Positions 8,865 through 39,300 of a stretch of DNA of 64,000 bases are shown piece after piece; within the stretch, counting starts at the first letter, position 1; each line of letters opens with the position of its first letter. Location of the stretch: IMG/VR virus record IMGVR_UViG_3300021131_000004; one strand, 5' to 3'. The notes under the pieces were generated by a model. It made no database searches and was not told where the DNA came from. It worked only from the letters and a program-made list of their open reading frames with translations. Source of the DNA: an uncultured virus (IMG/VR IMGVR_UViG_3300021131_000004). Its lineage: Duplodnaviria > Heunggongvirae > Uroviricota > Caudoviricetes. The translations under genes and the position numbers were made by a program.

Positions 8865-9166
8865 TTACTTTCTTCCTTTATTACTTTCTTCCTTTTTGAT
8901 GTATTGTTTATAGTACACACACCAAGGCCACCTTCATCCTTTTACCCATGCCGCCTTCGTGGTTTTTAAAATCCTCTGAAATGCCCTACCTACTTATGTT
9001 CTGTCATATCCTTCGTGGTCACCTTCGTGGTCACCTTCGTGGCATCCTTCGCAGTTTCTTCGTCCTTCGTGGTCACCTTCGTGCCGCCTTCATAGTTCTC
9101 AAAATCTTGATAAGTATCATATTTACAGACAGTTATGCGAATACCTCTGGTCGTCTTCGTGGTCAC
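8865..9166. repeat. Iteron-like 12-bp repeat array plus AT-rich segment: putative replication origin
   Basis: CCTTCGTGGTCA at 9010, 9022 and 9064; variants at 9034, 9046, 9076, 8954 and 9154; TTACTTTCTTCCTTT at 8865 and 8881. Confidence 0.7.
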
Positions 9167-9445
9167 TATCATGGCCTCACTTCTTAAAAATTTAAGAGCT
9201 TTTTCTATTTGATTTGCTGAATAAATTTGTTTTCTATAACCTACAAACCACTTTAATCCATCTTGAATATCGCCTATTGTTCTAATCATTTCACCTCTTT
9301 TTATGCCTAATTTTGAGTTGTTTTTATGATTAGCTTCTTTAATAATCCATGACCATACTTCTCTAGTACATGGGGCGGCATGAGCAATCGCAGAATCTTG
9401 GATAGCCCTGGCCATTATATAGTAACCTCCGGCTATTTTCTGCAT
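8990..9445 (-). CDS. Phage replication initiator, N-terminal winged-helix domain (lambda O-like organisation)
   Basis: GY..MAR.I, W.WII..ANH, I.RG, ITVCKYDTYQ motifs; internal iterons encode KVTT repeats. Confidence 0.75.
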   Translation of the reverse strand: MQKIAGGYYIMARAIQDSAIAHAAPCTREVWSWIIKEANHKNNSKLGIKRGEMIRTIGDIQDGLKWFVGYRKQIYSANQIEKALKFLRSEAMIVTTKTTRGIRITVCKYDTYQDFENYEGGTKVTTKDEETAKDATKVTTKVTTKDMTEHK

Positions 9446-17705: not shown

Positions 17706-19313
17706 ATGGGAACTCGTTCAATTCTTTACAACGAAGAAGCAAGAAAAGCAATTAAAAACGGTGTAGACAAAGTTGCTAATGCCGTTAAAGTTACGCTTGG
17801 GGCCAAAGGACGTACAGTTATTGTTGGTCATAAGTATGGATCTAAAATTACCAAGGATGGTATATCAGTAGCAAGAGCCATCAACCTTGAAGATGAAATT
17901 GAAGCTATTGGTGCAAATATTATTAAAGAGGTGTCTCAAAACACAGTGGCACAAGCTGGTGATGGTACAACTTCTGCGATGATCATCGCACAGGCCATCC
18001 TTCATGAAGGGTTTAAATTATCTGCTGCCGGACATAATACTACCGAGTTAAAAAGTGGTATCGATAAGGCCGTTAAAGCTGTAGTAGAGCAACTGAAAGT
18101 TATTTCTACACCTGTAGATGTTGACTCAGATAAGTTGAAACAGATTTCTATCATCTCTGCAAATAATGATGAAGAAATCGGAAGTAAAATTGCCGAGGCA
18201 TATAAGCTTACTGGTAAGGATGGCATCATCAGTATTGATGATAGCACCACAGGAGAGACTTATATCAAATCTGTAGAAGGTATGCAGTTTGAAAGAGGGT
18301 ATATTTCTCCATTTTTTGTAAATGATGAATCAACACTTAGTGTACAATTTGAAAAGCCATACATTCTTGTTTGTGCCGGTAAAATAAGTACAGGAAAAGA
18401 AATTCTTCCAATATTTGGTCAGGTAGTTAAATCTAACAATGCACCATTTTTAATCATCGCTGAAGATGTTGTTGATGAAGCACTTGGCATCATTCTAACC
18501 AATCGTATTAAAGGGCCTTATCCTATCTGTGTGATAAAATCACCTGGATTTGGTGACAATCAAATTGAAACATTAAGAGACATCTGTGCATTGACAGGAG
18601 CAACACTTGTAAATGATGAAACAGGAGTTAGATTGGATACTTTGACTTTAGAACAATTAGGAAAGTCTGATAAGGTTCTTGTAACCAAGGATGAGACTAC
18701 AATTGTTGGCGGTGCCGGAGATAAAAATGGTATTGAAGCAAGAAAAGATTTTATTCGTAAAAGTATTGAGCAATCTCCTGACGAGCGTGAACAGAATTTA
18801 TTCAGAAACAGACTTGCAAAATTAAGTGGCGGTATTGCCATTCTTTATGTGGGTGCATCTTCAGAAGTTGAATTGGGTGAAAAGAAAGATCGTTGCGATG
18901 ATGCACTGAGAGCCACAGGAGCCGCTCTAGAAGAGGGTATCGTTCCAGGTGGTGGAATTGCTCTTATTCGTTGCGATAGTATTCTTGAAAATTTACCATT
19001 CGATAATGATGGTGAAAGAGAAGGCATTAAATTAATCAGAAGAGTGTTATCTGCACCATTTAGACAGATGGTAGAGAATTCAGGACTAGATATTAACATC
19101 AGCAATATTTTGTCTCTTTCTCAAAATTTTGGTTATAACTTTAAGACTGATAAGGTGGAAGATTTAGTAGAGAGTGGTGTTGTCGATCCTACGAAAGTTG
19201 TAAGAGTGGCTTTAGTGAATGCAGCGAGTGTATCAGGTGTTCTATTGACATCAGAATCACTTATCGTTAATGTGGATGATCCAAATCAAATCATGCCTCA
19301 ATTTAAAAGATAA
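17706..19313 (+). CDS. groEL: Chaperonin GroEL
   Basis: AVKVTLGAKGR, ITKDG, AGDGTT, EGMQFERGYISP, KSPGFGD, EEGIVPGGG, GVVDPTKV. Confidence 0.98.
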   Translation: MGTRSILYNEEARKAIKNGVDKVANAVKVTLGAKGRTVIVGHKYGSKITKDGISVARAINLEDEIEAIGANIIKEVSQNTVAQAGDGTTSAMIIAQAILHEGFKLSAAGHNTTELKSGIDKAVKAVVEQLKVISTPVDVDSDKLKQISIISANNDEEIGSKIAEAYKLTGKDGIISIDDSTTGETYIKSVEGMQFERGYISPFFVNDESTLSVQFEKPYILVCAGKISTGKEILPIFGQVVKSNNAPFLIIAEDVVDEALGIILTNRIKGPYPICVIKSPGFGDNQIETLRDICALTGATLVNDETGVRLDTLTLEQLGKSDKVLVTKDETTIVGGAGDKNGIEARKDFIRKSIEQSPDEREQNLFRNRLAKLSGGIAILYVGASSEVELGEKKDRCDDALRATGAALEEGIVPGGGIALIRCDSILENLPFDNDGEREGIKLIRRVLSAPFRQMVENSGLDINISNILSLSQNFGYNFKTDKVEDLVESGVVDPTKVVRVALVNAASVSGVLLTSESLIVNVDDPNQIMPQFKR

Positions 19314-24470: not shown

Positions 24471-27400
24471 ATGAGCAAATCTGTAAGAGAAAATAAAAGG
24501 GTTCCAGACGCAATAGATTTATCATTTAGCGGAAGTGCCGCTATGCCTCAACAAGAAGTATCAAAAGAGCCTACACAAAAAAAAGGACCTGCTGATGCCA
24601 TTGATATGTCATTTGATGGAGATTTAAAAAAAAAAGATACTCTTTTAGGATCTTCCGCACCTTCATCGACATTACAATCTCAACAAGCACAACCAGGTAA
24701 CACCATTGCTTCTACTCCTGTTGATAATACTCCTAAACCAAAGACAAGAGAAGATTATTTCAAAGGAATTAAGGATGTTGTTTCTAACAACTACGCTGAT
24801 CTTGACGTAAGTGCTAAGAAAAGTAACATCAACCTTAAGCAGGTAGTAATGACTGCTGAAAAAGGTAATGCAGAGTCCTTGGTGACACTGCGTAAATTAG
24901 TTGCTGCAAATTTTGATAAGAAGATAAGTGAATCTACAACACCCTCTAATTTTTCAGCATTTAGTACAGGAGGATTTGGACAACCTATACAAAGTGTTAC
25001 TTCAGGAAAAAATGCCAATCAAGTAAAACTTGAGCAAGAGAAAAATGCGGCATTAAAATCATTAAATGAATTTGGTTCTGTAGCACTTACTAATGATCAT
25101 AAAAAAGTTGCTGGTAATAATATTGATAAAATTGATTTTGTTGCTCTTGGTAGAGACCATCAAAAATATTTTGGCGAAGAAGAAGAAACTAGGCAGCAGC
25201 AACTTGCACAGAAATCTAAATTAGGCATTGCTAAAATAGCCAAGGATAACATTAATTTCAACTACGCATCTATTGGTGTTGGTAATGCTATCCATGACGA
25301 AGAAATGACCTATAATGAACTTAAGGAGGCTGTTAAGAAAGATCCTACACTTGCTCCTAAGTTAGAAGAAAGTAAAAACCAGTTAAATAAACTTTACGAC
25401 AAGCAAAAAAATCTATTCAATGAATATCCTGAAGTAAGAAAACAATATGTTGCTCAGGTGTTAGGTGATAAGATTGCAGAGCAAAATAAAGCTTTTAATC
25501 TTTATGTAAGTAAAGATGATATCATAAAAGCCGCTGATGCAATTGAAAAAGAACATGGTGCAAAATTACCTGCTAATTTCAAGTCAGATGTAAATTCTTT
25601 AATGGATGAAACAGGAGGATTTTTCGGAAATACTTCTCCGGTACCTGGACAAGGATTCAAAGGAGCGATGGATAGGGCTGCTGTAGGAACAGGACTTGGT
25701 ATTTATGGTTTATTGCACATAGGATCAGAAGAAGACAGAGCAGCAAGAAAAGTAGCACTTCAAAGCATGGCCTTTAATAAAGGAACTTCTGAGTCTGGAG
25801 CGACAAAAGAAGTAATGACAATTTCCGATGATGGCAAAACCTATATCCCAAAAAATAACGAAGAAAACTTTCATCATTTTAATCCACTAGATAATCCTGC
25901 TGCTGCTTTTAATAACTACATGCGTGTAGCAGGAGGTGCTGTGCCTATGGTTGCCGAGTTTATGGCAACAGAAGCTGTTACAGGAGGTATCGGTGGTGTA
26001 ATTGCTGGAATTGGAGAAGCGGCAGCGGCACCAGTCGCATTAGTTGATGCAGGTGTAGCTGCTAACATAGCACAAAAATTTGCTTTCTCTGAAAAAACAA
26101 TGGAAGTGGCAAAAAAAGCTGCTAGTTTTTTTGTTACAGGGTTTGATGAAAATCATGATCGTTCTAGTGAGTTGATAAAGGGTGAAGGTATTGTTGCTGA
26201 TACCAAAAGAAATGCGATGGCAGCAGGGTTGACGATGCTAGATATGTTATCATTTGAATTGGTTGGTACTAACGTATCTCAAATAGTAAAAGGGTCAATT
26301 AAGAAGGCTGTAGCTAAAGATTTAGCGGAACATATTGAAAAAGTTGGAGTGGAAGGGTTAACAAGTAAATCAACCTTTATAGATCCTTTAATTAAATCTT
26401 ATGTCCCAAGGTTAGTGACTGCATTAGGTAAAGAAGGTGCTAAGATGGGTGTTGCTACTGCGGTACAAACTGCATTAAAAGATATGGCATCTATTGCAGC
26501 AGACCCTAATCATAAAATGACTCCAGTTTCGGAGTATGCAGACATAGTTACCGAGTCTGCAATAACAGGGATTGCACTTGGTCTTCCAGGTCATGTTTGG
26601 AATACAGAAAGTAAAACATTAAATTCATTAAATAGAGATGCATTATTTGATGCTGCTCAAAACTCTGATAAATATATTCGAAAATATAACCAGGCTGTTG
26701 TTGATGGGAAGATGACAAGACAACAAGCTAATGAAGCTATCAAAGTGGTTAACACTGCAAAATCGGAATATAATAATCGTGAAAATAGAGTTGATAAAAA
26801 TGGTAAGCCGTTAAATGATAGTAAGGTTAAAAAGATCATTGCTGATAGATTTTTACAGAGAGCTACAGAATTAGTAGAAGATAAGGCAGAAAGAAATAAA
26901 TTACGTGAGTCAACACAAAAAAGAATTGATGAAATAAAAGCTAGTGAAGATTGGGTAAATATCAATGAGACCCCATTGATAAAAGAAATGGGTATCAGAA
27001 CTATTGGTGATGGAAGACAGTCATACGCTGTTGATAAAATTGAGGATATAGATCCTGCGGCAGATTATATCATTAGTGGAGAGAAGGGTAAGAAGACAGG
27101 AGCCGAAGTTATCGACATGATTGAAAAAAAAGCACAAAACTATAAACATGAAGAAGCTAAAACATCCGAAGGTGAAGAAACCCCTGATCAAAAGGCCGCT
27201 AGAGAAAAAGCCGAGTCTGAAGCATCCCAAAGTAAGGTAACATTTACTGGTAAGGATAATAATTTCTTGGCCAACACAGAGCCTAATTTCTTCACTCCAG
27301 AAGAGCGTGAGAAGTACAATGAGTTAATGAAGACTCCAGAGACAGCAGATGAAGCTGCCGATATGGTTTCTAAAAGAAAAGAAGAACTCCGTAATCAAAA

Positions 27401-28412
27401 AAATACTCCTATAGAAATAGAGGATAAAGATTTGATGTTTAAGTATGGAGAAGCTGAAGGATTTATCATCGATGGCACTGCCAGGAAAGAGGTTCGTGGT
27501 GTGATGGAAAAAATGAATGATGCAGAATACATCAACGAAAATGAGATGGACAAGGCTGCTAATCATTTGTATGATTTATTGGATAAACATGGAGATAATC
27601 CATCATTCGCAAATCTTATTGAGCCACTAATAAATAAAATTGAGAAGTATGAATTTAGAACAAAGACTGAAACTAGCACAGTTACCGAAAGAGAAGCAGT
27701 TCAAGTTGCTAAAGAAAATAATAGAAGAAAAGCAGTCAGCAAAGACCTCAACCAGTGGGAAGGAAGCACAGCAACAATCACAGACTCCAACGGAAAAGAA
27801 GTAACAGGTCAGATAAAAATGGATGATGGTAAGTATTATTTGTTCGATGCCGAAGGTAATAAAGTCGCTGTTATTGGAGAGGCTGCACTTACTGATCGTG
27901 ATAGTTCATTGCCACCTACAGAAGAGATGCCTAGTCCATTTGAAATTGGCGAGGATGGTCAGATAAAATCAATCACTTTACAACTGAATAAAGTTGATAC
28001 TGAGAATGGTGGATTGAAGCCGGACAAAAGAATTAAGATTGAGTTTAAAGATCCGGAAAAGGCACTTGACTTAGCGATACAATTACAGGCTGAAGCTGTA
28101 GGTGAATATCCTATGGAAGAGTTTGAAACTCAGTATAGAGAAATTCAAAAAGAAATCAAAAAAGAGGTTCTTGTTTCAGAGGCGAAAGAAAAAGAAGATC
28201 GTGAGAAAAAAACAAAGGAACTTGAAAAAGAAAGAGACCAAAAAATATTATCAGAATCTGCTCCCGATCATAATTTTGATTTTATTCCTGATACTGAGTT
28301 AGCGGATATGCCTAAAGAGACAGAGTTGAAAATAGAGCAAAAAAGATTAAAAAATAGGGCTGAACAAATACAAAATCTTATCAAATGTCTAGAGCTGATG
28401 AGCAAGAATTAG
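24471..28412 (+). CDS. Large putative ejection/internal virion protein (1313 aa)
   Basis: Central Gly/Ala hydrophobic helices typical of podovirus ejectosome proteins. Confidence 0.65.
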   Translation: MSKSVRENKRVPDAIDLSFSGSAAMPQQEVSKEPTQKKGPADAIDMSFDGDLKKKDTLLGSSAPSSTLQSQQAQPGNTIASTPVDNTPKPKTREDYFKGIKDVVSNNYADLDVSAKKSNINLKQVVMTAEKGNAESLVTLRKLVAANFDKKISESTTPSNFSAFSTGGFGQPIQSVTSGKNANQVKLEQEKNAALKSLNEFGSVALTNDHKKVAGNNIDKIDFVALGRDHQKYFGEEEETRQQQLAQKSKLGIAKIAKDNINFNYASIGVGNAIHDEEMTYNELKEAVKKDPTLAPKLEESKNQLNKLYDKQKNLFNEYPEVRKQYVAQVLGDKIAEQNKAFNLYVSKDDIIKAADAIEKEHGAKLPANFKSDVNSLMDETGGFFGNTSPVPGQGFKGAMDRAAVGTGLGIYGLLHIGSEEDRAARKVALQSMAFNKGTSESGATKEVMTISDDGKTYIPKNNEENFHHFNPLDNPAAAFNNYMRVAGGAVPMVAEFMATEAVTGGIGGVIAGIGEAAAAPVALVDAGVAANIAQKFAFSEKTMEVAKKAASFFVTGFDENHDRSSELIKGEGIVADTKRNAMAAGLTMLDMLSFELVGTNVSQIVKGSIKKAVAKDLAEHIEKVGVEGLTSKSTFIDPLIKSYVPRLVTALGKEGAKMGVATAVQTALKDMASIAADPNHKMTPVSEYADIVTESAITGIALGLPGHVWNTESKTLNSLNRDALFDAAQNSDKYIRKYNQAVVDGKMTRQQANEAIKVVNTAKSEYNNRENRVDKNGKPLNDSKVKKIIADRFLQRATELVEDKAERNKLRESTQKRIDEIKASEDWVNINETPLIKEMGIRTIGDGRQSYAVDKIEDIDPAADYIISGEKGKKTGAEVIDMIEKKAQNYKHEEAKTSEGEETPDQKAAREKAESEASQSKVTFTGKDNNFLANTEPNFFTPEEREKYNELMKTPETADEAADMVSKRKEELRNQKNTPIEIEDKDLMFKYGEAEGFIIDGTARKEVRGVMEKMNDAEYINENEMDKAANHLYDLLDKHGDNPSFANLIEPLINKIEKYEFRTKTETSTVTEREAVQVAKENNRRKAVSKDLNQWEGSTATITDSNGKEVTGQIKMDDGKYYLFDAEGNKVAVIGEAALTDRDSSLPPTEEMPSPFEIGEDGQIKSITLQLNKVDTENGGLKPDKRIKIEFKDPEKALDLAIQLQAEAVGEYPMEEFETQYREIQKEIKKEVLVSEAKEKEDREKKTKELEKERDQKILSESAPDHNFDFIPDTELADMPKETELKIEQKRLKNRAEQIQNLIKCLELMSKN
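27148..27240 (+). CDS. Nested +1-frame basic peptide (30 aa)
   Basis: MKKLKHPKVKKPLIKRPLEKKPSLKHPKVR; A-rich leader; LKHPKV repeat differs only at third codon positions. Confidence 0.6.
   Translation: MKKLKHPKVKKPLIKRPLEKKPSLKHPKVR
27649..27804 (+). CDS. Nested +1-frame small protein (51 aa)
   Basis: MNLEQRLKLAQLPKEKQFKLLKKIIEEKQSAKTSTSGKEAQQQSQTPTEKK; amphipathic helices; A-rich leader. Confidence 0.45.
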   Translation: MNLEQRLKLAQLPKEKQFKLLKKIIEEKQSAKTSTSGKEAQQQSQTPTEKK

Positions 28413-28837
28413 ATGAACAAGAATTCAGAAGTCTTGTTGAAAGCAAAAGGCATAATCAAGTATTAGCGTCTAATGAAAAAATATTGGCTGCTCTGAAAGA
28501 AATTGTCGATGAGTCAAAAAAGGCTCCTGATAATTCTTTGAAATTAGCAGTAGAAAAACAGACAAAAGCTATTTATGATTTTCTTCAATTTATGAAGGAA
28601 ACACCTGCTGAAGTTAAGCCAGTAGAGAGTAAGGTAGAGTTTAATCCTGAAATCAAAGTGGAAGCCAATCAGGAAAAAGTCGTAAATTCGGTTGTCAAAA
28701 TGTCCGATGATATTCTAGAAGGCTTACAGGCATTGAAAGAGGCGGTGGATAAGGAAGAAAAGCCAAAAGAATTTGAATTTATTATTCATCGTGGGGCATA
28801 TCAATTGATAGAAAAAATAACGGTAAAACAAGTTTGA
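28385..28837 (+). CDS. Hypothetical protein, first gene of inserted cassette
   Basis: 150 aa; C-terminal EFEF.IHR.....IEKI.V motif. Confidence 0.75.
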   Translation: MSRADEQELDEQEFRSLVESKRHNQVLASNEKILAALKEIVDESKKAPDNSLKLAVEKQTKAIYDFLQFMKETPAEVKPVESKVEFNPEIKVEANQEKVVNSVVKMSDDILEGLQALKEAVDKEEKPKEFEFIIHRGAYQLIEKITVKQV

Positions 28838-28870
28838 TAAAAATTTTAATAATAATAAAAACCAATCACA

Positions 28871-29302
28871 ATGCCTAAGTCACAAAACACTTGTAATAAC
28901 TTATTAGCGTTGATTTATAATGCTACAGCATGGGCGAATATTGCTGATAATGCAGCATCGTCTCCAATCACCAATATTTATGTTGCATTAGCTACTGCGA
29001 GTTATACTACAACAAGTACAATGGCCACCAATGAAGCGACATACACAAACTATGTTCGCCAAACTGTAGTAAGATCAACTTCAGGATGGACTGCTCCTGC
29101 AACAAGAGCTACAGCAAATGCGGCCCAAATCACTTTCCCTCAGTGCGGAGTAACAGGTAACACAATTACCAGTGCTGCATGTGGTAAAGCGACAGGAGCA
29201 TCAGATATCTTCCATTATGGAGATTTAAATGCACCGATAGCTGTATCGAATCTGATCCAGCCAATTTTTGCCATTGGAGCCATCACGATTACAGAATCAT
29301 AG
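28871..29302 (+). CDS. Phage tail/fibre-associated structural protein
   Basis: LLALIYNATAWANIADNAASSP.TN.YVAL, EATYT.Y.R..V.R...GW, N...ITFP. Confidence 0.7.
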   Translation: MPKSQNTCNNLLALIYNATAWANIADNAASSPITNIYVALATASYTTTSTMATNEATYTNYVRQTVVRSTSGWTAPATRATANAAQITFPQCGVTGNTITSAACGKATGASDIFHYGDLNAPIAVSNLIQPIFAIGAITITES

Positions 29303-29323
29303 TCAACAACAACTGCAAATACC

Positions 29324-29584
29324 ATGAAATTATCAGAAAGATTTCCTCCACTATATACCTGCTCGGTATGTGGGAGAGCTGTAAAGGTGATACCCCAAGG
29401 AATTGGTGTAGAACCATTGTATGAATACCATAAAAAATGTGAGCACAGAAATGTGACTATATACGCTAACAGGAAAGTAGTTTTGAGAGGAAAGGGTAAG
29501 ATGAATATGATGAAGGAGGCACAATATAAAATGACAATTACTGTTAGAAATTTATTATCAGCATTAACCGGAAGAAGTATTTAA
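29324..29584 (+). CDS. Small zinc-ribbon-like protein
   Basis: CSVC...CEH. Confidence 0.65.
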   Translation: MKLSERFPPLYTCSVCGRAVKVIPQGIGVEPLYEYHKKCEHRNVTIYANRKVVLRGKGKMNMMKEAQYKMTITVRNLLSALTGRSI

Positions 29585-29585
29585 T

Positions 29586-30458
29586 ATGCCAGGATTCACA
29601 AAAGTAAAAGATTTAGTAGACTCTCAGGTCGTTAATGGATCTGAGAGGTACTATACTTTTCGCAAGGCAATAAGTTTAACTCCGCAGTCTGGTATATGGT
29701 TTGATTTTACAATGAGTCCAGGCAATCCTGTTCCAAAATACTGGTTTGATGCTACTCCATTAATAGGCGTTCAAATAAAGCAATCTACTGATGGAGGATT
29801 GTTTCATGGCTCAAATGTATCACCGCAGATAAAATATCTACGTGAATTAATGGTTTTCTGTACATCGGCTACTCCATTGCCAATGCCTATGATGCTATGC
29901 GACTATTTATTGTATTACCCTACTATAGATGAGACGGTAACTACTCCACAGGTAATGACTAATAATTTTCCATTACCAAGGTATGCTGATGGAGGTGGTG
30001 TTCAAATGATGGCTGTATCAACAGCTCCAAGAACAGGTGGTCAAACATTTACTGTAAACTATACTAATTCATTAGGCGTATCAGGAAGAGTTACACCTAA
30101 CGTAGCAGAAAATAACTTAGGTGTTAATGGGAATATAGTTAATTCTTATACTACCAATACGCTAGGTGCTGCAAGTGGGTTATTTATACCTTTGCAAACA
30201 GGTGATTTAGGTGTGCAAAGTGTGCAAAGTGTTACAATGAATGGAGCTGATGTAGGTTTGTTTTCTATCGTTTTAGTAAAGCCATTAGCAAACTTAAGTA
30301 TTCGTGGTGTTGACGCTCCTGTGGAGGTAGATTATTTCAAGGACTTTTCAATAACGCCAATTATACAAGATGATGCATATTTAAATTTACTTGGGGTGCC
30401 TCAAGGTAACTTATCAGGAACACAAATTCATGGAAGTATAAGAACAACTTTTTTTTAA
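29586..30458 (+). CDS. Structural beta-rich protein (paralogue of 30476..31648)
   Basis: Shares MPGF start, LPRY..G.GVQ, YTNS....GR.TP, F.P.Q.GD.G and P.I.D.A.L. Confidence 0.7.
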   Translation: MPGFTKVKDLVDSQVVNGSERYYTFRKAISLTPQSGIWFDFTMSPGNPVPKYWFDATPLIGVQIKQSTDGGLFHGSNVSPQIKYLRELMVFCTSATPLPMPMMLCDYLLYYPTIDETVTTPQVMTNNFPLPRYADGGGVQMMAVSTAPRTGGQTFTVNYTNSLGVSGRVTPNVAENNLGVNGNIVNSYTTNTLGAASGLFIPLQTGDLGVQSVQSVTMNGADVGLFSIVLVKPLANLSIRGVDAPVEVDYFKDFSITPIIQDDAYLNLLGVPQGNLSGTQIHGSIRTTFF

Positions 30459-30475
30459 ATTTTAAATAATATTTT

Positions 30476-31648
30476 ATGCCAGGTTTTTCAAGTATGGACT
30501 CTCTAGTAAACGCTTTAACCCTAGGTCAGCGTTGGAGATTTGACTGGAATAAAAACTTCCTGCCGACAACTACAGGTGTTGTTGGTCAGTGGGATTGTTT
30601 GGCAAGAGGTGCAGGTAATCCAGGATCAGATACTTTGTACAATACAGGTACTAACTTATTGTTTCAACCTGCATACGATTCGTTAGCATCAGCATCAGGT
30701 ATACCTCATGGTGGTAACGTAGCACCAGCGTATAAAAGTTTAATCAATGCTAGTGCATTTAGTGCTGCGGCTACTGTGGCCCCATGCATTTTGTGCTTAG
30801 TTGATTTGTTAGGATTTTATAGGGTTACATCAACAACAACCATCACCTCTCAGGCGATGACAAATACATTGATGGCTTTTGCAACTACTGTTTGTAGTGT
30901 GAATAATATTCTTACGAACACAAGTACAGGAGCAAACATTGCACAAAATTTATTCCCTTTCACAAGGGTTCAGTTTACAACTACAGGTACACTTCCTACA
31001 GGTCTTGCTACAGCGACAGACTACTACGTTATTAAGTTGACAGATACTACAATTTCTGTGGCAACTTCTTATGCGAATGCTGTTGCAGGTACGGCTGTTT
31101 CAATTACATCTGGTACAGGATCAGGAGTACATACTTTGAATACTTTATTACCAAGATACACAAGTGGTGCAGGTGTTCAATCATTCATGTGGAATACAAA
31201 CGCAACACCATTGGGTGCAGGTACTCCAAACTTATCATATCCGGCATATACAAACTCACAACAAGCAACAGGTAGAGCAACACCTGCGGTACTTCCAGTT
31301 GGTAAAACAGCAGCGGAGAACGGAATGATTCTTTATAGTGGTACCGGTGTTGGAAAATATGGAATGTTTATGCCAATGCAAGGTGGTGATTCAGGTACTG
31401 CTAAAATTGATAACGTGCAGTTATCTGCAACATATACTTCAGGTGAATTTTCAATAGGTTTATGCGTACCATTATTATACATGCCGATAACTACATTAGG
31501 TGTTCCTTGTGAAAGAGATTTACTGAATCAGTTGCCATCATTACCAAGAATTTATGATGGTGCAAACCTTCAGTGGTGTTATTATAATGGGAATTTAACT
31601 CCTGTGAATAGTGCTATTAATGGCTCACTAGAATTTGCATGGAACTAA
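30476..31648 (+). CDS. Structural beta-rich protein with inserted tail-fibre-type domain
   Basis: Paralogue motifs plus insert VQFTTTGTLPTGL...TDYYVI...SGTGSGVHTL. Confidence 0.7.
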   Translation: MPGFSSMDSLVNALTLGQRWRFDWNKNFLPTTTGVVGQWDCLARGAGNPGSDTLYNTGTNLLFQPAYDSLASASGIPHGGNVAPAYKSLINASAFSAAATVAPCILCLVDLLGFYRVTSTTTITSQAMTNTLMAFATTVCSVNNILTNTSTGANIAQNLFPFTRVQFTTTGTLPTGLATATDYYVIKLTDTTISVATSYANAVAGTAVSITSGTGSGVHTLNTLLPRYTSGAGVQSFMWNTNATPLGAGTPNLSYPAYTNSQQATGRATPAVLPVGKTAAENGMILYSGTGVGKYGMFMPMQGGDSGTAKIDNVQLSATYTSGEFSIGLCVPLLYMPITTLGVPCERDLLNQLPSLPRIYDGANLQWCYYNGNLTPVNSAINGSLEFAWN

Positions 31649-31660
31649 AATAATTACATA

Positions 31661-33046
31661 ATGGCTCTACTAGGAAATTATTCCGTATTAAACAAAGTTC
31701 CTGTGACTTACCTCGCAGGAACTTCTTGCTGTGATAGGAGTAACTGGAATCCTCCTGGGCCATCAAGAAATATGTTCTTGAATGACGAGAGTGTAATGAA
31801 CGTGAACGGTGGAACATTATCTACTCACTTTCTATTTACTTACGGTGTTCCATTAGGTGGTGTACCACCTTACTCTTGGATTATCCCTCAAGTTGCAGGA
31901 GGTATGGCTATGAGGGGAGTAGGATCTTCTTTAGTCTCTTTTAACTTAATTCCTCAATATCCAACAAGTGCTGCGTTCACAGGTGGTAGTACGTTTGTTG
32001 CTAGTTTAAATGCATTAGGAAATATCATATTAGCAGCTACAGGAGGAAGTAGTTTTGTAGCATCGATGACAGGTACAGGTAATATGACTATAGCACTAAC
32101 AGGGAGCTGTATAACAAGTTTAACTATCAGTGCAAATGGGAATATAGTACTAACGCTTTCTGGTAGTTCTGTTGTAACATCTTCTTTAGTAGGTAATGGA
32201 AATATTAGTGTAGGGTTAACAGGAAGTGGTTCTATTTCAGCTACGGCTTCTCAGTTGATAGAAATGATTGCCGCCCTCACAGGTAGTAGCACAGTAACTG
32301 CGAATATCACAGGTAATGGTGTTATTTCGATAGGGTTAACAGGGAGTGGAAGTATCAGTGCAACCTTAGCTTATCTAGTTGGTATGCTATGTGCTATGAC
32401 AGGAAGCAGTTCCTTCTCTGCGAATGCGTTATTACTCACCAATTTGATTTGTAACATGACAGGAAGTGGCACTCTTAACGCTGATGCCGTCATGTTATTG
32501 TTCATGCTATGTAATTTAACCGGTAGCGGTAGTATTACTGCATCTATGATAGGACAGAAGCCAATGTCTGCATCCATGACGGGACTCGGAAGTTTAAGTG
32601 CTAATATCAACGGTCTTTTAGACATGGTTGCGAACTTGATTGGATCAGGTAATTTAAATGGTGGAGTAGGTGCAATTGCGGATATGAGTATTGATTTAAC
32701 TGTTACAGGATCAGGATTAACTACAGCTAACGTAGGTGCTGCAATTTGGGATGCATTAGCAAGTGAATTTAATAAACCTGGTACTATGGGTAACAAGCTC
32801 AATAGTGCAGGAAATGCAGGAGACCCTTGGAGTACAATTTTACCTGCCGGATACACAGGAGAACAGGCAGGAAATATTCTTGCACAGATTCAAGCTTTAG
32901 TAGATGAATTACATAAGATTCAAGGCTTAGATGCGGCTAATCCATCTACTACTGATGTGAATGCAAGAACATGGACCGCAGGAGGAATTACTATAGATAT
33001 GACAGGTGACTTAACTGATGTAACCACAATGACTAGAAGGCCGTGA
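31661..33046 (+). CDS. Repeat-containing fibre/spike-like protein
   Basis: More than ten ~19-aa LTGSGS.SA repeats. Confidence 0.7.
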   Translation: MALLGNYSVLNKVPVTYLAGTSCCDRSNWNPPGPSRNMFLNDESVMNVNGGTLSTHFLFTYGVPLGGVPPYSWIIPQVAGGMAMRGVGSSLVSFNLIPQYPTSAAFTGGSTFVASLNALGNIILAATGGSSFVASMTGTGNMTIALTGSCITSLTISANGNIVLTLSGSSVVTSSLVGNGNISVGLTGSGSISATASQLIEMIAALTGSSTVTANITGNGVISIGLTGSGSISATLAYLVGMLCAMTGSSSFSANALLLTNLICNMTGSGTLNADAVMLLFMLCNLTGSGSITASMIGQKPMSASMTGLGSLSANINGLLDMVANLIGSGNLNGGVGAIADMSIDLTVTGSGLTTANVGAAIWDALASEFNKPGTMGNKLNSAGNAGDPWSTILPAGYTGEQAGNILAQIQALVDELHKIQGLDAANPSTTDVNARTWTAGGITIDMTGDLTDVTTMTRRP

Positions 33047-33306
33047 TAAGACGTTCTGTAGCCATATCGACAAGGGGTAGGATATCTGCGAGTACCAAGA
33101 AGGCAATAACAATTGCTACGATTGGTTGGATTGTGTATACTTCTCCGGTACCTGGTGGTGGCCAAGGAATTGTCCCCGATAATAGACCTCCAGGTGGTAT
33201 ATTGCAGTCGCAAATAGATGACAGAAGAGACCTAGTTAGAAAGATAGTTGAGAGAGATGATAATGAGATTGTAGAAATCATTAAAATATTTATGAAATGC
33301 CTATAG
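33043..33306 (+). CDS. Hypothetical protein, last gene of cassette
   Basis: 87 aa, GTGA coupling, IATIGW and DDNEIVEII motifs. Confidence 0.65.
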   Translation: MIRRSVAISTRGRISASTKKAITIATIGWIVYTSPVPGGGQGIVPDNRPPGGILQSQIDDRRDLVRKIVERDDNEIVEIIKIFMKCL

Positions 33307-36300
33307 ATTGTTTCGATAAACATTACCCTAGAGCGAAGCAGCAATTTACTGATCGTATCAAAGATGGCATGTCCGAACTTGAACAAAGACAAGAGGGATT
33401 AAAGATTGCTGAAGAACTTCAGAAGCAATTGAATGATGATGTGAATGCATTCAAACAGAAGATTGGTAAAGACCCAAAGGAATATAAGTCTACAGATAAA
33501 TCCGCGAAAGTCGAAGGAATTAAATCCGAATACGACACCAAGATAAAAGAGCTTTCTTCACCTAAAACAAAAACAGATGGCAAAGACCAAAAAAGCAGCA
33601 CCGAAAAAAGCAGCCAAGAAAATGCCTCCCAAAAAGGCAATGAAAAAGGCGGCACCTCCAAAGGGGATGTAATCGTACCACCTACTAGAGATGATTTAAC
33701 ACCAATAATTAAAGTTGGAGGTAAGGAATATACAGGATATGATCATGGAGAGGCAATGAAGAGTGCTATTGCCGCAGGAGAGAAAATTCCTAGTCCTGAT
33801 ACACCAGAAGGGAAGAAATGGAGAATGGAGAATGGTATGTTTAAAGATAATGATGGCAATCTTTTAACCAGAGACCAAACTCAAGATAAATATGGAATAT
33901 CGCATAGTGAACAGTTGCTTCCTGGCAGAGAAGTCCCGATATATGCTAGGAATGTTTCTGCGTTAATAACTCCTGCTACAGTAAGAGCTTTTGATAAATT
34001 AACGGCAAGGATGAAAAAAATGTCTGTTAAATATGATGAATTGGTTGCCGAAATGAATAAAAAACCTAGCGATAAAATACTTTCTAAGATTAGAACTTTA
34101 GAAAGGCAAATACTAGGGGAGGCAAAAAAGGAAATAGTTGCGGCCATAGAAAAAATAAAAGGAGTTGGGGTAATGTTTAAAGATGATAATATGGGTTCTT
34201 GGCATGGAACCGCAGAGCCATCATTAAATATGTTCCTTAAGATAGAGGCAGATGCTGACACTCAGGCTTTAAGTGATTTTATACACGAATTTGGGGAAAA
34301 ATATTCCCAGGATGCTATTATACTTGAAACTCAATCAGAGCATCATAATGATGTCATTTCTGGCAAAAAAGACATTCCATTATCTGATTTTGACGGAAAG
34401 TTCTTGCATTATCCACAAAAACTAATTAAGTTTGCAAAAGATTTAACGGCTGATCAGATAGCAAAATTGTCTAATTCTTTAAGATCTAAAGGAGTAAACG
34501 AATTTTCTTTGAACAGTAAAGAGCTGAAAGTTTCAATTATTACTGAACTTTCAGACGAGCAAAAGAAATTATCGGATGACGAACAATATAAAATAAAACT
34601 AGATGACTACAACTCAAAAAACATCGCAACCAGTGAAGCGGTTAACGCACTCGGAAGCAATGGCGGAGTCGAACAGACTATTAGGTATCGTAAGTCCAAG
34701 TACGAAGGAGGGAAAACAACCGGAGAAGGAGGACAGCAACGCAAATACGATAGAAGTGACATTTTTAAGGACTTCTCAGAAGAAGTAAAAGATACCCAAG
34801 TATTGGGTAAGGAGCTTGGCATTTTACGTGACAAGCAAATTTCTTTGCAAGAGAAAGGTAAAGATTTAACTCCTAAAGAAAAAGAGAGGCTTGATGAACT
34901 TACTAAAAAAGTTCAGCCTATTGTTGAAGAAACATTTCAAACAAGAGAAAGAGAATTTGAAAAGGCGAAAGAAGAAGTAGAGTCAATCGCTGCTAAAGCT
35001 ATTAAAGGTATTCAAGGGTTTGTTTCTAAATTCCCAATTAAAAGAGCCACTAGAGCATCGGTTAAAACTCTTAGATGGTATAGTGCTGATCCATCAAAAT
35101 TAGGGGATGCAGCAAGAGTAAATATTATTGCTCCTGACCTCAAAACATCTAATGAGGTTTTTAATAAAATAAATAAAGAGAATGCGGTAGACGCTGATTT
35201 GAGAAGAATAAATGAGCCTACTGATTTAGGTTATCCAAAAAGACTTATCGAAGTAAGAACATCATCAGGTGCTATTGCTGAAATTCAGGTAATGACTCCG
35301 GAGGGATACCTTGCTAAAGATGGTGTGAAAGATTTTCCTGAAGCTGAAAGAGGCTTTGCAAAAAAACAATTAGATAAGATACGTGAAAAATTAGGATGGA
35401 ATATACCAGATGGTGTTGGCCATTATTTTTATGAGATAAATCGTGATTTTAATGTTCCAGAAAACATAAGAGAAGAAGCTAAAAGATTAAGTAATCAGTA
35501 TTATGATGCAATGCTTCGTCCTGAAGAATCTAAAATTTCTGGAGAACAATTTCAGAAAGATCTTGATAAATTTAGGGAGTCTGTTGATAAGGCTGATAAG
35601 ACTGGATGGGATACAGGTAATGAAGGTAAAATTCCTGAAACCGCTAAAGAGTTTTTAAAAGAAAAAGTTGAAAAATCTGAAGAGAAACAAACAGCTCTAG
35701 ATCAAGAGGATGCTGTTGACCATGAAGATCCATTACAAGTATCTCTTCAAAGAGATGCATTAATTCAGAGAGTTCAAGATGAATTCTTCAAGCCTGAGAA
35801 TGGTTCTAGAAGTATTGGCGATGATGTTGTAATGAATGGTGCAATAAAAACACTTTCAAGAGAAGCAGTTGATGCAGGTAAATCAATATTGAATCACTTA
35901 GCTGATAAAGTTAAAAAGTGGGACAATGAATTATTTAATCCTACTACCGGGGAAAGAAGAGTAGATGGAAATGGACGTTTTGTTCAAAAAGTATTGACTG
36001 ATGAAGAATTAGCAATGCTAGGTGTTCATAGTCTTGAATTAGAGAAGAAAATAAGAGAAGCTAAGTTTGAGCCAGGTGTTGAGATGGATAATGCTGCATT
36101 AGGTGCTCTATTAGGCGAACAGGAGCAATTGCAAAGACTTACTGCCGCAGTTACAGAAGCTGCTGGTAGAGGGTTCCGTTTTATACAACAGATATATAGT
36201 TTTGGAGACAAGGGAGAATATAATCTTCATGTTAAATTAGCAGAACAATTGGTAGGATCTAAAATACCATTGGATGAAGCGGAATTTAAATCATTCAAAG

Positions 36301-39300
36301 AGTCTCTTCCTAAAGGTCAACAGAAAGTAGCACAGGTTGCACATGATGCTATCACTGCATTGAAAGCTAAGTATGATGAGATTGAAAAGAAAAGAGATAA
36401 GATTCAGAAAAATAAAGCTAAGATTGACGCAGAAGAAATCAATAAGCAAACTACCGCTGGTGTAAATCAATCTAAAACATCTGATGTTGAAGATGGTGAT
36501 AAAACAAAGAATACTACTAAGAGTGGAAAAATTAAAAAAAGTTCCGCTGTAAAAGTTTCTGATAGGTTAGATAAGTTAGCCGACTTTATTGAGAATAAAA
36601 ATCTATTAGGAGGTAATCTTCCCGAAGGTACTCAAGCTATGGGTGTGTCAGGTGGTCAAAACTTCAGTAAAGCTGTCGCAGAAAGTATTAGACGTATTGC
36701 ACAAAAAATCAGAAATCTTGAAGGTAAAATTCCTGATCTTATTGATGATGAGGTTAAGTTACTAATCAAAGATGGCCATGATGAAAAACAGGCGAGAGAA
36801 GCTATCAAGAATCAATTGAAACAAGCAGGTATTGAAGATGAAGCAATCAATGCTACGCCAAAGAGAGAGGACTTGATTAATAAAATAGTTGAGCATAGCA
36901 AAAATGCAAAAACACCAAACAAATTATCTAAAGAATCTGTAAAGAAAAATTTAGTTAAGCAGTTGGCTGTTGAAGTTGCATTAAGAGGTGAGCCAGTTGA
37001 ATCAGTTCCTGAAAAAGTAATTTCTTTATTGAAGGAAAAAGGAATTGAATTGGATAGAAATCAATATAATGATGCATTTTTAAGACAAGGTGAATTTAAA
37101 TTAAGCAGAAGTAATGATTTAGCAAATAATGCAAAGAAATTATCTAAAGAATTGACCGAATCAGAGAAGTTATTTACTGAGATGGAAAAATTAGATGAAC
37201 AAATTGCATCTGTTCAAGATACTGGCACAATTGATAAAGACAAGAAAGATATTCCTGAAAAAGTAATAGTACCTAAACTTGCGGAAAAAGAATCTCAATT
37301 AAAAGAGGCAATGATTAAGAAGGGAATTAAATTTGAAAGAGGAAGTAAGGATAGCCAGGCTGCTAAGAGAGGTGTTTTAGCAGCACATAACGAATCGGTA
37401 GAAAGATTTGGAGATAAGATAACTAAGATGCTAGATAATGATGCATTTGGTGATAAAAATGTTGAAGGGTTAAAAGACTTTTTGCGTGGGTTACAGAAAA
37501 AATTATCTCAAAAAGTTGATGCAACTAATTTAGATACGCATATTAAGGAAGCCTCATTAAAAGTTGAAAAAGCAATCAACGAATTTAATCGTGATTGGTT
37601 CAAAGCTGAGAAGAGAGGTGATAAAAGCATGCAAGAAGTACTTGATGATTTAAATAAACTTCACAGAGACATAGAATCTAATGCGAAAAAATCTGCTGAA
37701 AAAATTGCATTAGATAGATTTAAGAAGAGAATGAACAGCGAGATTGATGAATATAATAGAAAGAAAAATGCAGGGGAGTTTGATGATACTAAAGGTGTCA
37801 CAGAATTAAAAAAAGATGCTGATGCGTATAGGCTAGAAGATGAAAAAGAATTAGCAAAAGTTGAATTTATGAGAGCCTTAGATGCTTATAAAAACGAAAA
37901 GGCAAAAGATTCTACTTGGGGTAAAATATATTTATTTGTACATGGTGTTCGTTCTGTTACAGGACGTATGATTGTATCTGGACTTGGTAATATTCAAGCA
38001 AAACTTATTGGTTCTTCTGCAACAAGAAGGGTAACTCCATTATCAAGAGCATTAGCACATCTCTATACAAAAAGGTTAGGATTAGAAGGTTCAGTTGTTC
38101 AGCAATCTACTAATTCAAAAGCAATGTGGAGGGGATATAAAGAAACGATAATTGGGTCTAGTGAGAAAAAAGCTATGGCAGCTATTGAAAAAAGCAGAGA
38201 GAATGTGTATGCGGCTAATGATAAATTAGCTGAAGCTCAAGATAAATATAGAGAGTTAATTGAATCTGGAGATAAAGAAGCGGCAAATAAATTTAAAAAC
38301 ACTGAGTTGGCAAAGGCTAGAAATGAATATAATTTAGCGGCTATGGATGATTCTATTAATTTTATGTACACTAAGATGCATACGAATCCTTGGAGAGGTA
38401 GGGCATACATTTTTGAAAAAGGTCTATCTAAGCAAGAAGAAGATAGTGGCATGTTTGGTAAAAGAGAATCTATAGGTGATGTCATGAAAGATAATTCTCC
38501 TGTAGATTTTGGTAACGATACTAATAAATTTAATGCAGCGGTTAAGAAAACAGGAAGTAGAGTATCTAAGATAATTAGAGCCGGATTATTCTATGCTAAT
38601 ATGACTACTCGTTCACACTCTGTATGGAAAGATATTCCAGCTAGACAGGCGATGGTAGAAGGATATATGAAGAGATTAGAGAAAGCTCAAAATGACGGAG
38701 AAGATATTTCTAACTATGAAGTAAAAGCAAGGCTGTGGCATGAAGCAGTTGCAACTGATGGACAAGAAGCTAAGTTTCAAGATAAAAATAAAGCAGTTGA
38801 TATAACAAGAGATATTCAAAGTGCAATTGGTAAGGGTATATTAAAAGCAGGAGGGAATGAATATGCAGCTAAAACAGTTGATGAGTTAGCGTACATGACT
38901 ACTCAGGTATTAAAAGTTCCTATGAATATCGCTAAGGTTAAGGTATTTCAATATGGGTTAGGAACTATTATGGGAACATTTGACGCACTTGCTCAAAGAA
39001 GTAATGCTAAAAAAGCAGGGCTTGGATTTGCAGAATACATGAAGACAATTGATCCTAAATATTCTGATAGGATTATTAATTCATTAGCTAAAGGAACTGT
39101 AGGTATTGCATCGAGTATTTTAGTAGGTGCAATGACGATGAATGGTCAATATGTCTCTGGAGGTAGTTATCCTGATCCTAAGAAAAAAAATGTCCCGACA
39201 AATGAAGGTCCTCAAGATTTAGAATACGGAGATATTGTAATACTAGGACATAAATTACCGCATTTACTTGCAGTAGCATGGGGTCACACTCCACTTGGAT

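Follow-up and report, generated by a model that had tools for sequence, protein, structure and literature searches.

A 30-codon open reading frame nested in the +1 frame of a 1313-aa phage gene is most likely a by-product of the linker encoded by that gene and not a selected gene, a reading to which we assign a probability of roughly one half. The existence of the frame, its length and the charge of its product follow from the host protein sequence (here and below, the host gene, protein and frame are those that enclose the nested frame). A residual third-base signal exists in the linker, and a comparable null is also beaten in unrelated low-complexity linkers. A hidden gene is possible and unproven; the composition of the repetitive spacer yields such a frame almost automatically.

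The nested frame and its host gene

The window, i.e., the whole stretch of 64,000 nucleotides that was analysed, carries the following features around the nested frame, all on the plus strand:

24471..28412, +, host gene of 1313 aa (P0001), from the ORF call
27118..27120, +, TGA in the +1 frame, from host ATG-ATT (M883-I884), read from the sequence
27124..27131, +, A8 run in the A-rich leader, host GAA AAA AAA G (E885-K886-K887), one of nine runs of at least A8 in the window
27148..27240, +, nested +1 ORF, with its ATG from host CAT-GAA (H893-E894)
27156..27236, +, host linker A896-K922, devoid of hydrophobic residues, differing between homologues and lying within the AlphaFold low-confidence segment aa 893-930 (alignment, composition, AlphaFold)
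27157..27174, +, first LKHPKV copy, CTA AAA CAT CCG AAG GTG, host residues AKTSEG, read from the sequence
27159..27233, +, five degenerate 15-nt units (unit table, lag-15 autocorrelation)
27165..27227, +, five rare NCC host codons: TCC 27165, ACC 27180, GCC 27195, GCC 27210, TCC 27225
27217..27234, +, second LKHPKV copy, CTG AAG CAT CCC AAA GTA, host residues SEASQS, read from the sequence
27237..27395, +, conserved host block VTFTGKDNNFLANTEPNFFTPEEREKYNELMK..., whose first codons, GTA-ACA, create the nested TAA

A preliminary description of this DNA had placed, nested in the 1313-aa gene, a +1-frame peptide gene with an A-rich leader. Reading the sequence confirms both elements: the frame runs from ATG 27148 to TAA 27238-27240 (30 codons plus stop, MKKLKHPKVKKPLIKRPLEKKPSLKHPKVR), and the 25 bases 5' of the ATG are A-rich (GAAAAAAAAGCACAAAACTATAAAC). 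In the ORF list the +1 frame spans 27121..27240 and thus opens directly after the TGA. The peptide has no Cys and no hydrophobic stretch, and the search for its relatives gave no usable Atlas match. Codon usage in the nested frame is among the worst of all alternate-frame ORFs (z = -6.4, rank 51 of 53), while that of the host frame in this region is normal (z = -0.46, to -0.9). The RNA at the nested ORF is not unusually structured (fold z = +0.46; 134 of 200 shuffles fold at least equally well), and no Rfam family matches the site. Elsewhere, sub-threshold Rfam matches (REN-SRE at 27406-27440, and MIR396) were taken as chance.

P0001 corresponds to one part of a giant phage protein, 2000-3500 aa long in relatives (2058-2884 aa and more; 2528-3515 aa for the stop-to-stop ORFs of loci L001-L006). 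Its earlier label as ejection-like found no confirmation, with no Pfam family, no PHROG family and no PDB sequence match. Protein searches returned 3, 3 and 1 matches (the last being P0047), and a search of representatives returned 42 proteins and no DNA. Among 50,697 phage records, neither nucleotide searches nor tblastn matched the region or P0001, and no relative covering the nested site was found in viral, metagenome and genome contig collections. Loci L001-L006 share only aa 1004-1246 with P0001, and tblastn at E <= 1 finds nothing upstream of that segment. The terminase matched 87 phage records, 86 of them from Flavobacteriia hosts and one with its host unnamed. Of the 14 sequencing runs listed with the stretch, none is recorded as RNA. 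Contigs of runs X1, X2, X5 and X6 span the nested ORF (X2 at about 94% identity, X6 at about 89%, X5 with a 177-nt contig over 27127-27303 that carries 10 differences) and show 338 differences in total; the 40 that are listed include none inside 26811-27280, a sample that cannot speak to variation within the nested ORF.

The host linker is a disordered, repetitive spacer

The preliminary description had also regarded the host protein as a tolerant linker at this site, which is supported by composition, homologue variability and structure prediction. From K892 to K922 (31 aa) there is no L, I, V, M, F, W, Y or C. Across 16 homologues (17-sequence alignment), the linker varies in sequence and length and is rich in indels, while both flanks align; within the conserved block that follows, G927-E972 is invariant in 9 sequences. 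AlphaFold pLDDT falls below 50 at aa 893-930, compared with 76-79 before and 67-84 after. In two relatives, P0047 and P0007, host residue 896 is Val, a residue whose codons GTA and GTG would give +1 TAA and TGA; the linker of P0005 contains an Ile, for which ATA would give +1 TAG.

The five 15-nt units read KTSEG EETPD QKAAR EKAES EASQS in the host frame and K-x-P-x-x five times in the +1 frame, where unit positions 1 and 3 are invariant (K, P). Base autocorrelation at lags 15, 30 and 45 is 0.49, 0.46 and 0.58, respectively; the lag-15 value has P = 0.004, which becomes 0.11 when the best of all lags is taken; TRF reports no tandem array in the linker region. At the protein level, lag-5 periodicity gives P values of 0.06 for P0001, 0.06 for P0005, 0.03 for P0006, 0.40 for P0007 and 0.14 for P0008. 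The segment accordingly shows what is expected of a disordered tandem-repeat interdomain linker, namely periodicity, variable length and a predicted lack of structure.

This disordered spacer is flanked by a conserved N-terminal module, which ends in Y-x-H-E-E, and by a conserved DFTGKDNNFLAN block, and consists of some five degenerate pentapeptides (15-nt units) that follow the pattern [K/E/Q]-x-[S/T/A]-x-x. A +1 stop requires a host codon ending in TA or TG (L, I, V, M), so the open part of the +1 frame coincides exactly with the hydrophobic-free stretch, and its bounds, the TGA at 27118-20 (M883-I884) and the TAA at 27238-40 (V923-T924), are the edges of that stretch. Host xAA and xAG codons become Lys or Arg in the +1 frame and host CAT-GAA (His-Glu) provides the ATG, while the A-rich Lys/Glu/Gln/Asn codons upstream mimic the A-rich start context, free of a Shine-Dalgarno (SD) sequence, of this Flavobacteriia-type phage.

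What the host protein dictates

With the host protein fixed and its codons redrawn, 16,043 of 20,000 draws (80%) keep the ATG, and every draw that keeps it has an ORF of at least 28 codons with a net charge of at least +8. An alternate-frame ORF with its start inside the host gene, as looked for in overprinted genes, is indeed present; because 80% of codon resamplings yield the same, it is weak evidence of a gene. Three other hydrophobic-free linkers in the window are likewise fully open and K-rich in the +1 frame, and by default only about 40-60% of homologues would be expected to keep a +1 ORF of at least 25 codons, with a chance of about 3% that all five do so.

The same holds in large part for the repeat on which the preliminary description had based its claim of selection on the hidden peptide. 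Its five silent differences between the two LKHPKV copies are as reported, all at nested third positions, i.e., host first positions. Because these positions coincide, host changes within a residue class (K/E/Q or S/T/A) are mostly silent in the +1 frame and differences between units look synonymous there: 40 of the 67 host-changing first-position mutations in the linker are silent in +1. The argument from silent differences is therefore largely geometric, and what stands in favour of selection is the third-base signal described below. LKHPKV is the only identical 6-aa pair at most 40 codons apart with at least 3 base differences in the sense alternate frames of the 50 called genes (18,472 codons). 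Randomised windows contained one or more such pairs in 6% of runs that shuffled blocks of 20 codons, in 3.3% with blocks of 40 codons, in 2% when whole genes were shuffled and in 3% of synonymous resamplings (300 runs each). The pair is uncommon, yet within reach of a scan of many windows, and both the repeat and the periodicity were chosen post hoc, after inspection of the data.

The start context of the nested ATG scores 7.03, higher than 80% of real starts and a value reached by 5 of 974 alternate-frame ATGs; over three scoring variants, it lies above 70-84% of real starts and ranks 3-8 among the 974. The score expected from the host residues alone, 3.2 +/- 2.6, overlaps that of real starts (median 3.9), so this good context may carry little weight. 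An SD-like core is missing from 47 of the 50 real genes (3 carry one), and real starts are A-rich upstream, with an A frequency of 0.90 at position -11.

A third-base signal in the repeat units

The five NCC codons keep an exact 5-codon spacing, occupy the same unit position in all five units and each read as Pro in +1. The NCC share within the four-codon TCN, ACN and GCN families is 8.6-11.7%, which gives P ~1e-5 for five NCC given the residues, and theirs is the only 5-term NCC progression in 18,472 codons (none in 400 resampled windows). Of the 11 xCN codons in this linker, 5 end in C, versus 2 of 46 in the window's three non-periodic linkers, and NCC usage is independent of the next base (7-12% in all four contexts). 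More generally, pairwise differences between units number 35, 19 and 16 of 50 at host codon positions 1, 2 and 3. The likeness among host third positions exceeds the prediction from codon usage (16 differences versus 30.1 +/- 4.3, P = 0.0027), host first positions are at the random level, and the order of variability is that expected for +1 coding.

For calibration, we turned to hydrophobic-free linkers at six other phage loci, where Pro plus Ala in the +1 frame beats codon resampling (P < 0.05) in 2 of 8; one of the two outliers is a poly-Gly run with no ATG (P < 0.001). Among homologues, xCN occupies the would-be Pro position of the pentamer in all 5 units of P0005, 3 of 5 of P0006, 4 of 6 of P0008 and 4 of 6 of P0007. 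We infer that the units share their NCC codons through common descent or copying, rather than through selection for +1 proline.

The fragment P0047, encoded on an 83-kb contig and 90% identical to the host protein, carries six host replacements in the linker. By single-step parsimony from the protein, four would be silent in +1 and the other two would fall in one +1 codon (P ~0.1 against a null of 33% silent), so that P0047 would keep 29 of 30 nested versus 24 of 30 host residues.

A second +1 frame

Another +1 ORF lies at 33577-33672; it encodes 31 aa, is K/A/P-rich and has the top-ranked start context. Host codons are much more strongly distorted over this ORF than over 27148-27240, and no A8-type run precedes it. 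Apart from composition, the two nested ORFs show no likeness to each other (DNA P = 0.69, peptide P = 0.49), nor are the two giant host proteins paralogous (best E = 0.35). An ORF of similar kind, 19 aa long, occurs at the matching site of L001 (6856-6915). Neither relatives of the host gene of the 33577 ORF nor close relatives of L001 were found in viral contigs.

Alternative explanations

That the nested frame is a real overprinted gene is a tentative second reading. Ribosomes of a Bacteroidota host would start, independently of an SD sequence, at ATG 27148 on the host mRNA, and the candidate product would be a 30-aa, very basic peptide of K-x-P-x-hydrophobic repeats, for which the preliminary description had suggested DNA condensing or ribosome binding as conceivable roles, with selection on Lys and Pro codons fixing host positions 2 and 3 while the linker absorbs first-position changes. 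The five exactly spaced NCC codons and the ranking of unit variability (nested position 3 > 1 > 2, with its third-base likeness) argue for this. So do the start context, the rarity of SD-like cores with A-rich real starts, the Flavobacteriia hosts of the terminase-matched records and the lack of structure in the nested region, as well as the inferred retention of nested residues in P0047, the second +1 ORF with its distorted host codons and the 19-aa ORF in L001. Against it, the ORF, its charge and much of its start context follow from the host residues; the would-be Pro position is xCN in only part of the units of P0006, P0008 and P0007; codon usage in the nested frame is very poor; linkers of other phages beat the resampling null too, one of them with no ATG at all; and the peptide is without recognisable relatives, its repeat and periodicity having been picked after seeing the data. 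Somewhat more doubtful is the wider proposal that this phage encodes basic, Lys/Pro-rich +1 peptides of about 30 aa in giant-protein linkers, with at least two genes (27148-27240 and 33577-33672) and a counterpart in L001, started at internal A-rich ATGs free of SD sequences and with Lys/Pro/Ala codon selection distorting host synonymous sites.

The codon anomaly can also be read with no second protein, as a DNA or RNA signal, or a tuning of translation through the spacer, that constrains CC at 15-nt spacing. The anomaly is confined to one repeat column, with other third positions showing normal usage, as this would predict; we know of no signal with a 15-nt CC period, the region lacks both a stable RNA structure and an Rfam match, and the following base has no influence on NCC usage, all of which make such a constraint unlikely. 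A pair of compensating indels might instead have moved the linker into a new frame, leaving the old Lys and Pro codons in +1. The protein-like +1 pattern and the indel-prone A8 run just upstream would suit this history, which is nevertheless quite improbable: H893-E894-E895 and the block after the linker are in the present host frame in all relatives, the linkers of the closest relatives are acidic, host-like and in the same pentamer phase, and host codon usage is normal. We rejected it on the grounds that no in-frame linker of a homologue resembles the +1 peptide (best score 26 versus a shuffled maximum of 27.5 +/- 3.4, P = 0.72). Ribosomal or transcriptional slippage on the A8 run, which would cut the host protein short and add a basic tail of 38 aa rather than release a free peptide, is harder still to credit. 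The +1 frame does open at 27121, three bases ahead of the run, but runs of this kind are common (9 of at least A8 and 11 of at least T8 in 64 kb) and the second ORF has none before it. The frame is open behind the run, which, to judge from the proteins, is not kept: the Lys-Lys pair appears as Gln-Lys in P0047 (K886Q, which would break the run) and seems not to be Lys-Lys in P0005-P0008. Finally, a codon-aligned minus-strand ORF (27230..27021, TTG start) is open for 69 codons, and because the reverse complement of NCC is GGN (Gly), host first-position changes are third-position changes in this antisense frame as well. We give an antisense gene practically no credence and rejected it for its poor starts (scores of -6.5 for the TTG and -9.4 for an internal ATG), its codon usage (z -6.7) and the absence of a promoter-like site on the minus strand in 26800-27600; moreover, the repeat copies read TFGCFS and TLGCFR there, hence are not identical, and the surrounding genes are all on the plus strand.

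If the nested frame is a by-product of the linker, as we favour, it carries a caution: finding all differences synonymous in +1 is largely a matter of the layout of the genetic code, acidic hydrophobic-free linkers would always carry an open basic +1 frame, and in hosts that do without SD sequences such frames may even show a convincing start context. Since linkers yield open basic +1 frames in this way, nested basic linker peptides should have to pass a substitution test for each frame. A real peptide would mean dual coding within a giant phage protein's disordered spacer, accompanied by a second case 6 kb away, among hosts whose start-site choice is poorly understood.

Comparison with known systems

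Out-of-frame genes nested in phage genes are known from lambda, where Rz1 lies inside Rz in the +1 frame, and from phiX174, where E lies inside D. The ORF described here is likewise short, ATG-started and wholly inside a longer phage gene, in +1 and on the same mRNA. Rz1 and E were shown by genetics and are conserved, whereas the present peptide is predicted from the sequence. The embedded o-spanin Rz1 has the signal sequence and lipobox Cys of a lipoprotein; the nested peptide, with neither Cys nor hydrophobic segment, has no lipobox.

Low-complexity or tandem-repeat interdomain linkers are known as a general class in large phage virion proteins. The host linker resembles them in being E/K/S/T/A-rich, hydrophobic-free, variable in length and low in pLDDT, with a 15-nt periodicity. 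It differs in the rare NCC codon shared by every unit, which residue class and codon usage do not explain.

Among overlapping viral frames, genome-like codon usage marks the ancestral one, according to Pavesi et al., 2013 (PMC3744397). Set against overprinted viral genes in general, the host frame is genome-like and the nested frame is not, the pattern of a host frame that is ancestral and a second frame that is either younger or non-coding. Codon usage cannot tell apart an overprinted gene of recent origin and an alternate frame that does not code. For Bacteroidetes, SD-independent initiation relying on unstructured mRNA and upstream A residues is described by Baez et al., 2019 (PMC6847099). 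The starts of this phage agree with that description in being A-rich and largely free of SD sequences, and the nested ATG also has an A at -3 and AAAA at -12 to -9. That study concerns annotated starts, whereas the nested ATG is an internal, out-of-frame candidate start.

A periodic linker beneath the nested frame

The preliminary description had reported an ORF in the +1 frame of the host gene (24471-28412, plus strand; 1313-aa protein P0001), and its sequence facts (the ORF, the frame, the LKHPKV pair and the five third-position differences) agree with the DNA when read directly.

27148-27240, plus strand: nested ORF in the host +1 frame, ATG at 27148 to TAA at 27240, peptide MKKLKHPKVKKPLIKRPLEKKPSLKHPKVR
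27157-27174 and 27217-27234, plus strand: LKHPKV copies with five differences, all at nested third positions; host reading AKTSEG and SEASQS

Across the sense alternate frames of the 50 called genes (18,472 codons), no other two identical 6-aa words lie at most 40 codons apart with at least three base differences. Shuffling or codon resampling of the window (300 runs each) produces a comparable pair 2-6% of the time; such a pair is uncommon, yet often expected when many windows are scanned.

Residues 640-990 of P0001 were searched against 1.84 billion representatives (E <= 0.001), and 42 relatives were recovered, all large proteins. In a 17-sequence alignment, the spacer between host KHEE and VTFTGKDNNF is rich in E, K, S, T, A and Q, differs in sequence across relatives and varies in length from about 25 to 60 residues. 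A conserved N-terminal module precedes it, and the block that follows, DFTGKDNNFLANKEPxFFTPEEREKYNELMK, shows strong conservation; Y891, H893, E894 and E895 are invariant across the five closest proteins. An AlphaFold model of aa 801-1050 built with this alignment falls below pLDDT 50 at exactly aa 893-930 (76-79 before, 67-84 after). Because the spacer varies among relatives and is modeled with such low confidence, the earlier proposal that the host protein tolerates this segment as a linker is supported.

The linker consists of five degenerate 15-nt units (27159-27233; host KTSEG EETPD QKAAR EKAES EASQS), read in +1 as K-x-P-x-x five times. The repeat thus extends beyond the LKHPKV pair, whose copies correspond to the first and fifth units. 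The autocorrelation of bases has its peaks at lags 15, 30 and 45 (0.49, 0.46 and 0.58); codon shuffling gives P = 0.004 for lag 15 and P = 0.11 when the best of all lags is taken. TRF calls no repeat at these units. At the level of the host protein, the close homologues P0005 (P = 0.06) and P0006 (P = 0.03) share a lag-5 periodicity with the same phase relative to HEE; this periodicity is weak in P0008 (P = 0.14) and P0007 (P = 0.40).

The open, basic +1 frame follows from codon geometry

For a stop to arise in +1, a host codon must end in TA or TG (Leu, Ile, Val, Met) and have a suitable next base. Here TGA at 27118-20 (host Met883-Ile884) and TAA at 27238-40 (host Val923-Thr924) close the +1 frame, so that the open stretch coincides precisely with the hydrophobic-free host stretch. 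Host xAA and xAG codons (Lys, Glu, Gln) become Lys or Arg in +1, and the nested ATG is supplied by host CAT-GAA (His-Glu). When synonymous codons were redrawn from window usage for an unchanged host protein, the ATG was present in 16,043 of 20,000 draws (80%), and in every one of these the ORF ran for 28 codons or more and had a net charge of at least +8. The window's three other hydrophobic-free linkers are also K-rich and free of stops in +1. A linker of this kind automatically carries an open, basic +1 frame.

The silent differences had been taken as a mark of selection on the hidden peptide. Within a residue class (K/E/Q; S/T/A/P; G/S), codons have the second base in common and vary at the first; a linker needing only 'charged, small, small, charged, small' therefore varies at host position 1, which is +1 position 3, and 40 of the 67 host-changing first-position mutations in the linker are silent in +1. 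The codon-aligned antisense frame has the same wobble property, since the reverse complement of NCC is GGN, and the silent-difference argument therefore applies to more than the +1 frame. Of the preliminary description, the observation and the tolerated linker stand; selection on the peptide does not follow from an argument that is mostly geometry. A periodic disordered linker would yield an open basic +1 frame as a side effect, and we place the probability that the nested ORF is such a by-product at about 0.5.

A residual signal at synonymous sites

The small residue at position 3 of every unit uses a rare NCC codon (host frame, plus strand):

27165, plus strand: TCC
27180, plus strand: ACC
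27195, plus strand: GCC
27210, plus strand: GCC
27225, plus strand: TCC

NCC codons account for 8.6-11.7% of usage in their four-codon families (TCN, ACN, GCN), and the remaining seven xCN codons in or beside the linker end in T or A. No other NCC codons in the window form a 5-term arithmetic progression, and 400 codon-resampled windows contained no such progression. C-ending xCN codons number 5/11 in the linker vs 2/46 in the window's three non-periodic linkers. Pairwise unit differences at host positions 1, 2 and 3 are 35, 19 and 16 of 50, which is the order of variability expected from coding in +1; the 16 third-position differences compare with 30.1 +/- 4.3 predicted by codon usage (P = 0.0027, more alike). 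These NCC and unit-difference statistics were framed post hoc, and two of the five NCC codons belong to the original observation.

The by-product reading leaves this signal unexplained. For calibration, the same resampling was applied to eight hydrophobic-free linkers from L001-L006, six other phage loci sharing P0001 aa 1004-1246. Two exceeded the null for +1 Pro+Ala at P < 0.05, one of them a poly-Gly run without an ATG (P < 0.001). Independent codon draws are therefore too strict a null for low-complexity DNA, whose units copy one another, and the calibration reduces the weight of the NCC signal without erasing it.

Further +1 ORFs in the 2150-aa gene

33577-33672, plus strand: second +1 ORF, ATG at 33577 to TAA at 33672, inside the 2150-aa gene 33297-39749; 31 aa, MAKTKKAAPKKAAKKMPPKKAMKKAAPPKGM
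34603-34788, plus strand: third +1 ORF, inside the same gene; 61 aa, start-context score 7.45

The 33577 ORF is a stronger candidate than the one at 27148-27240. It has the top start-context score of 974 alternate-frame ATGs (9.0) and occupies the window's longest hydrophobic-free linker. In host codon usage the site is a top-0.2% outlier (z = -4.59), with 15 of 48 host codons C-ending, beginning directly after the ATG, and a local GC of 0.46 vs 0.35-0.39. Its Ala+Pro count is 13; at least 8 was reached in 0 of 20,000 codon resamplings. The best match to its start region over the six loci, both strands, is L001:6837-6859 (score 17; shuffled-query maximum 15, 0/60 shuffles reaching 17), in a distant relative where the start site is conserved as TTCACCnAAAACAnAAACAGATG. 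The matching ATG begins a 19-aa +1 ORF, MKTKPKKPKPKKPKGYGKM, built from ACC/GCC host codons (site and ORF at L001:6837-6915, plus strand), and both ORFs end at host Asp-Val (GAT GTA A). The 27148 and 33577 ORFs show no likeness beyond composition. The third ORF adjoins a host codon-usage outlier (z = -4.23 at 34599).

The 1313-aa and 2150-aa proteins match separate parts of one giant ORF, L001:3190-10773: P0001 aa 1004-1246 corresponds to L001 6001-6705, and aa 1157-2068 of the 2150-aa protein to L001 aa 1567-2437 (E = 8e-26). From these matches to a single ORF, one giant gene seems to have been divided into two in the window. Six smaller called ORFs of 86-461 aa lie between them (28385-33046).

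Relatives and alternative explanations

That 27148-27240 is a genuine nested peptide gene is possible though doubtful. The real residue of non-random synonymous sites keeps this explanation alive, and the 33577 ORF increases the prior probability that ORFs of this kind are meaningful in this phage, although its pattern could equally reflect young, C-richer tandem repeats; against it stands the ease with which codon redraws produce the ATG and a basic ORF. Codon usage is very poor in the nested frame, which ranks 51st of 53 alternate-frame ORFs (z = -6.4), and normal in the host frame (z = -0.46). The Atlas gave no neighbour of the nested peptide. Contigs of four public runs span the ORF at about 98%, 94%, 94% and 89% identity, one of the ~94% contigs being 177 nt over 27127-27303; 40 of 338 differences are listed, 0 in 26811-27280, and these have no bearing on ORF variation either way. 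The only informative relative is P0047, a 104-aa fragment 90% identical to P0001, with six linker replacements (A896V, G901S, P905A, E915D, S916T, Q920K). By single-step parsimony four changes are silent in +1 and two fall in one +1 codon (null 33% silent, P ~0.1), in a relative available as protein only, where host-silent changes, the telling kind, are invisible.

Another constraint on the CC columns, which would also address the NCC codons, is improbable; no RNA structure was found at the nested ORF (z = +0.46) and no Rfam family at its site. Still less likely is a +1 frame that is the fossil of a former host frame: the nested peptide does not resemble the in-frame linkers of homologues (P = 0.72), which counts against a recent frame switch. 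A frameshift tail is slightly less credible again, the A8 run at 27124-27131 sitting where the +1 frame opens but being one of nine such A-runs in the window and not kept in relatives. An antisense gene, despite the shared wobble property, has almost no probability; the antisense ORF was rejected for its start context and codon usage and because no promoter was found for it.

P0047 lies on an 83-kb contig and is called as 104 aa only, equivalent to P0001 aa 879-977 with different ends; on both sides of it, either the giant gene is interrupted or the assembly is shifted. The strongest codon-usage outliers of the whole window (z = -7.27 at 9088, z = -5.92 at 7653) sit in minus-strand genes 8990-9445 and 7564-8469.

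Start context and phage affiliation

The window belongs to a phage genome (35% GC), and almost every gene in it lies on the plus strand. The gene set includes a terminase, a GroEL-like chaperonin and glycosyltransferases, along with several giant ORFs. The phage-encoded chaperonin (17706-19313, plus strand) matches phrog_5725 at E = 9e-150. P0001 has no relative in Pfam, PHROG or PDB, which leaves the 'ejection-like' label once given to its gene unconfirmed.

Start context was scored with a position matrix from the 50 gene starts (leave-one-out for real starts). The nested ATG scores 7.03, exceeding 80% of real starts and equalled by 5 of 974 alternate-frame ATGs, among which it ranks 3rd to 8th across three matrix variants. 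The host residues EKKAQNYKHEE alone predict 3.2 +/- 2.6, near the real-start median of 3.9, and start context therefore discriminates little. SD-like cores occur in only 3 of 50 gene starts, so the absence of one is no argument against the nested ORF; the upstream regions are A/T-rich, with A at a frequency of 0.90 at position -11. At 22-24% identity, the terminase has matches in 87 phage records, of which 86 have Flavobacteriia hosts (Flavobacterium 68, Cellulophaga 15, Tenacibaculum 2, Maribacter 1) and one is unnamed. Bacteroidetes initiation is described as relying on unstructured mRNA and upstream adenines (PMC6847099). The start pattern of the window fits initiation of this Bacteroidota type, in line with terminase matches to Flavobacteriia phages only.
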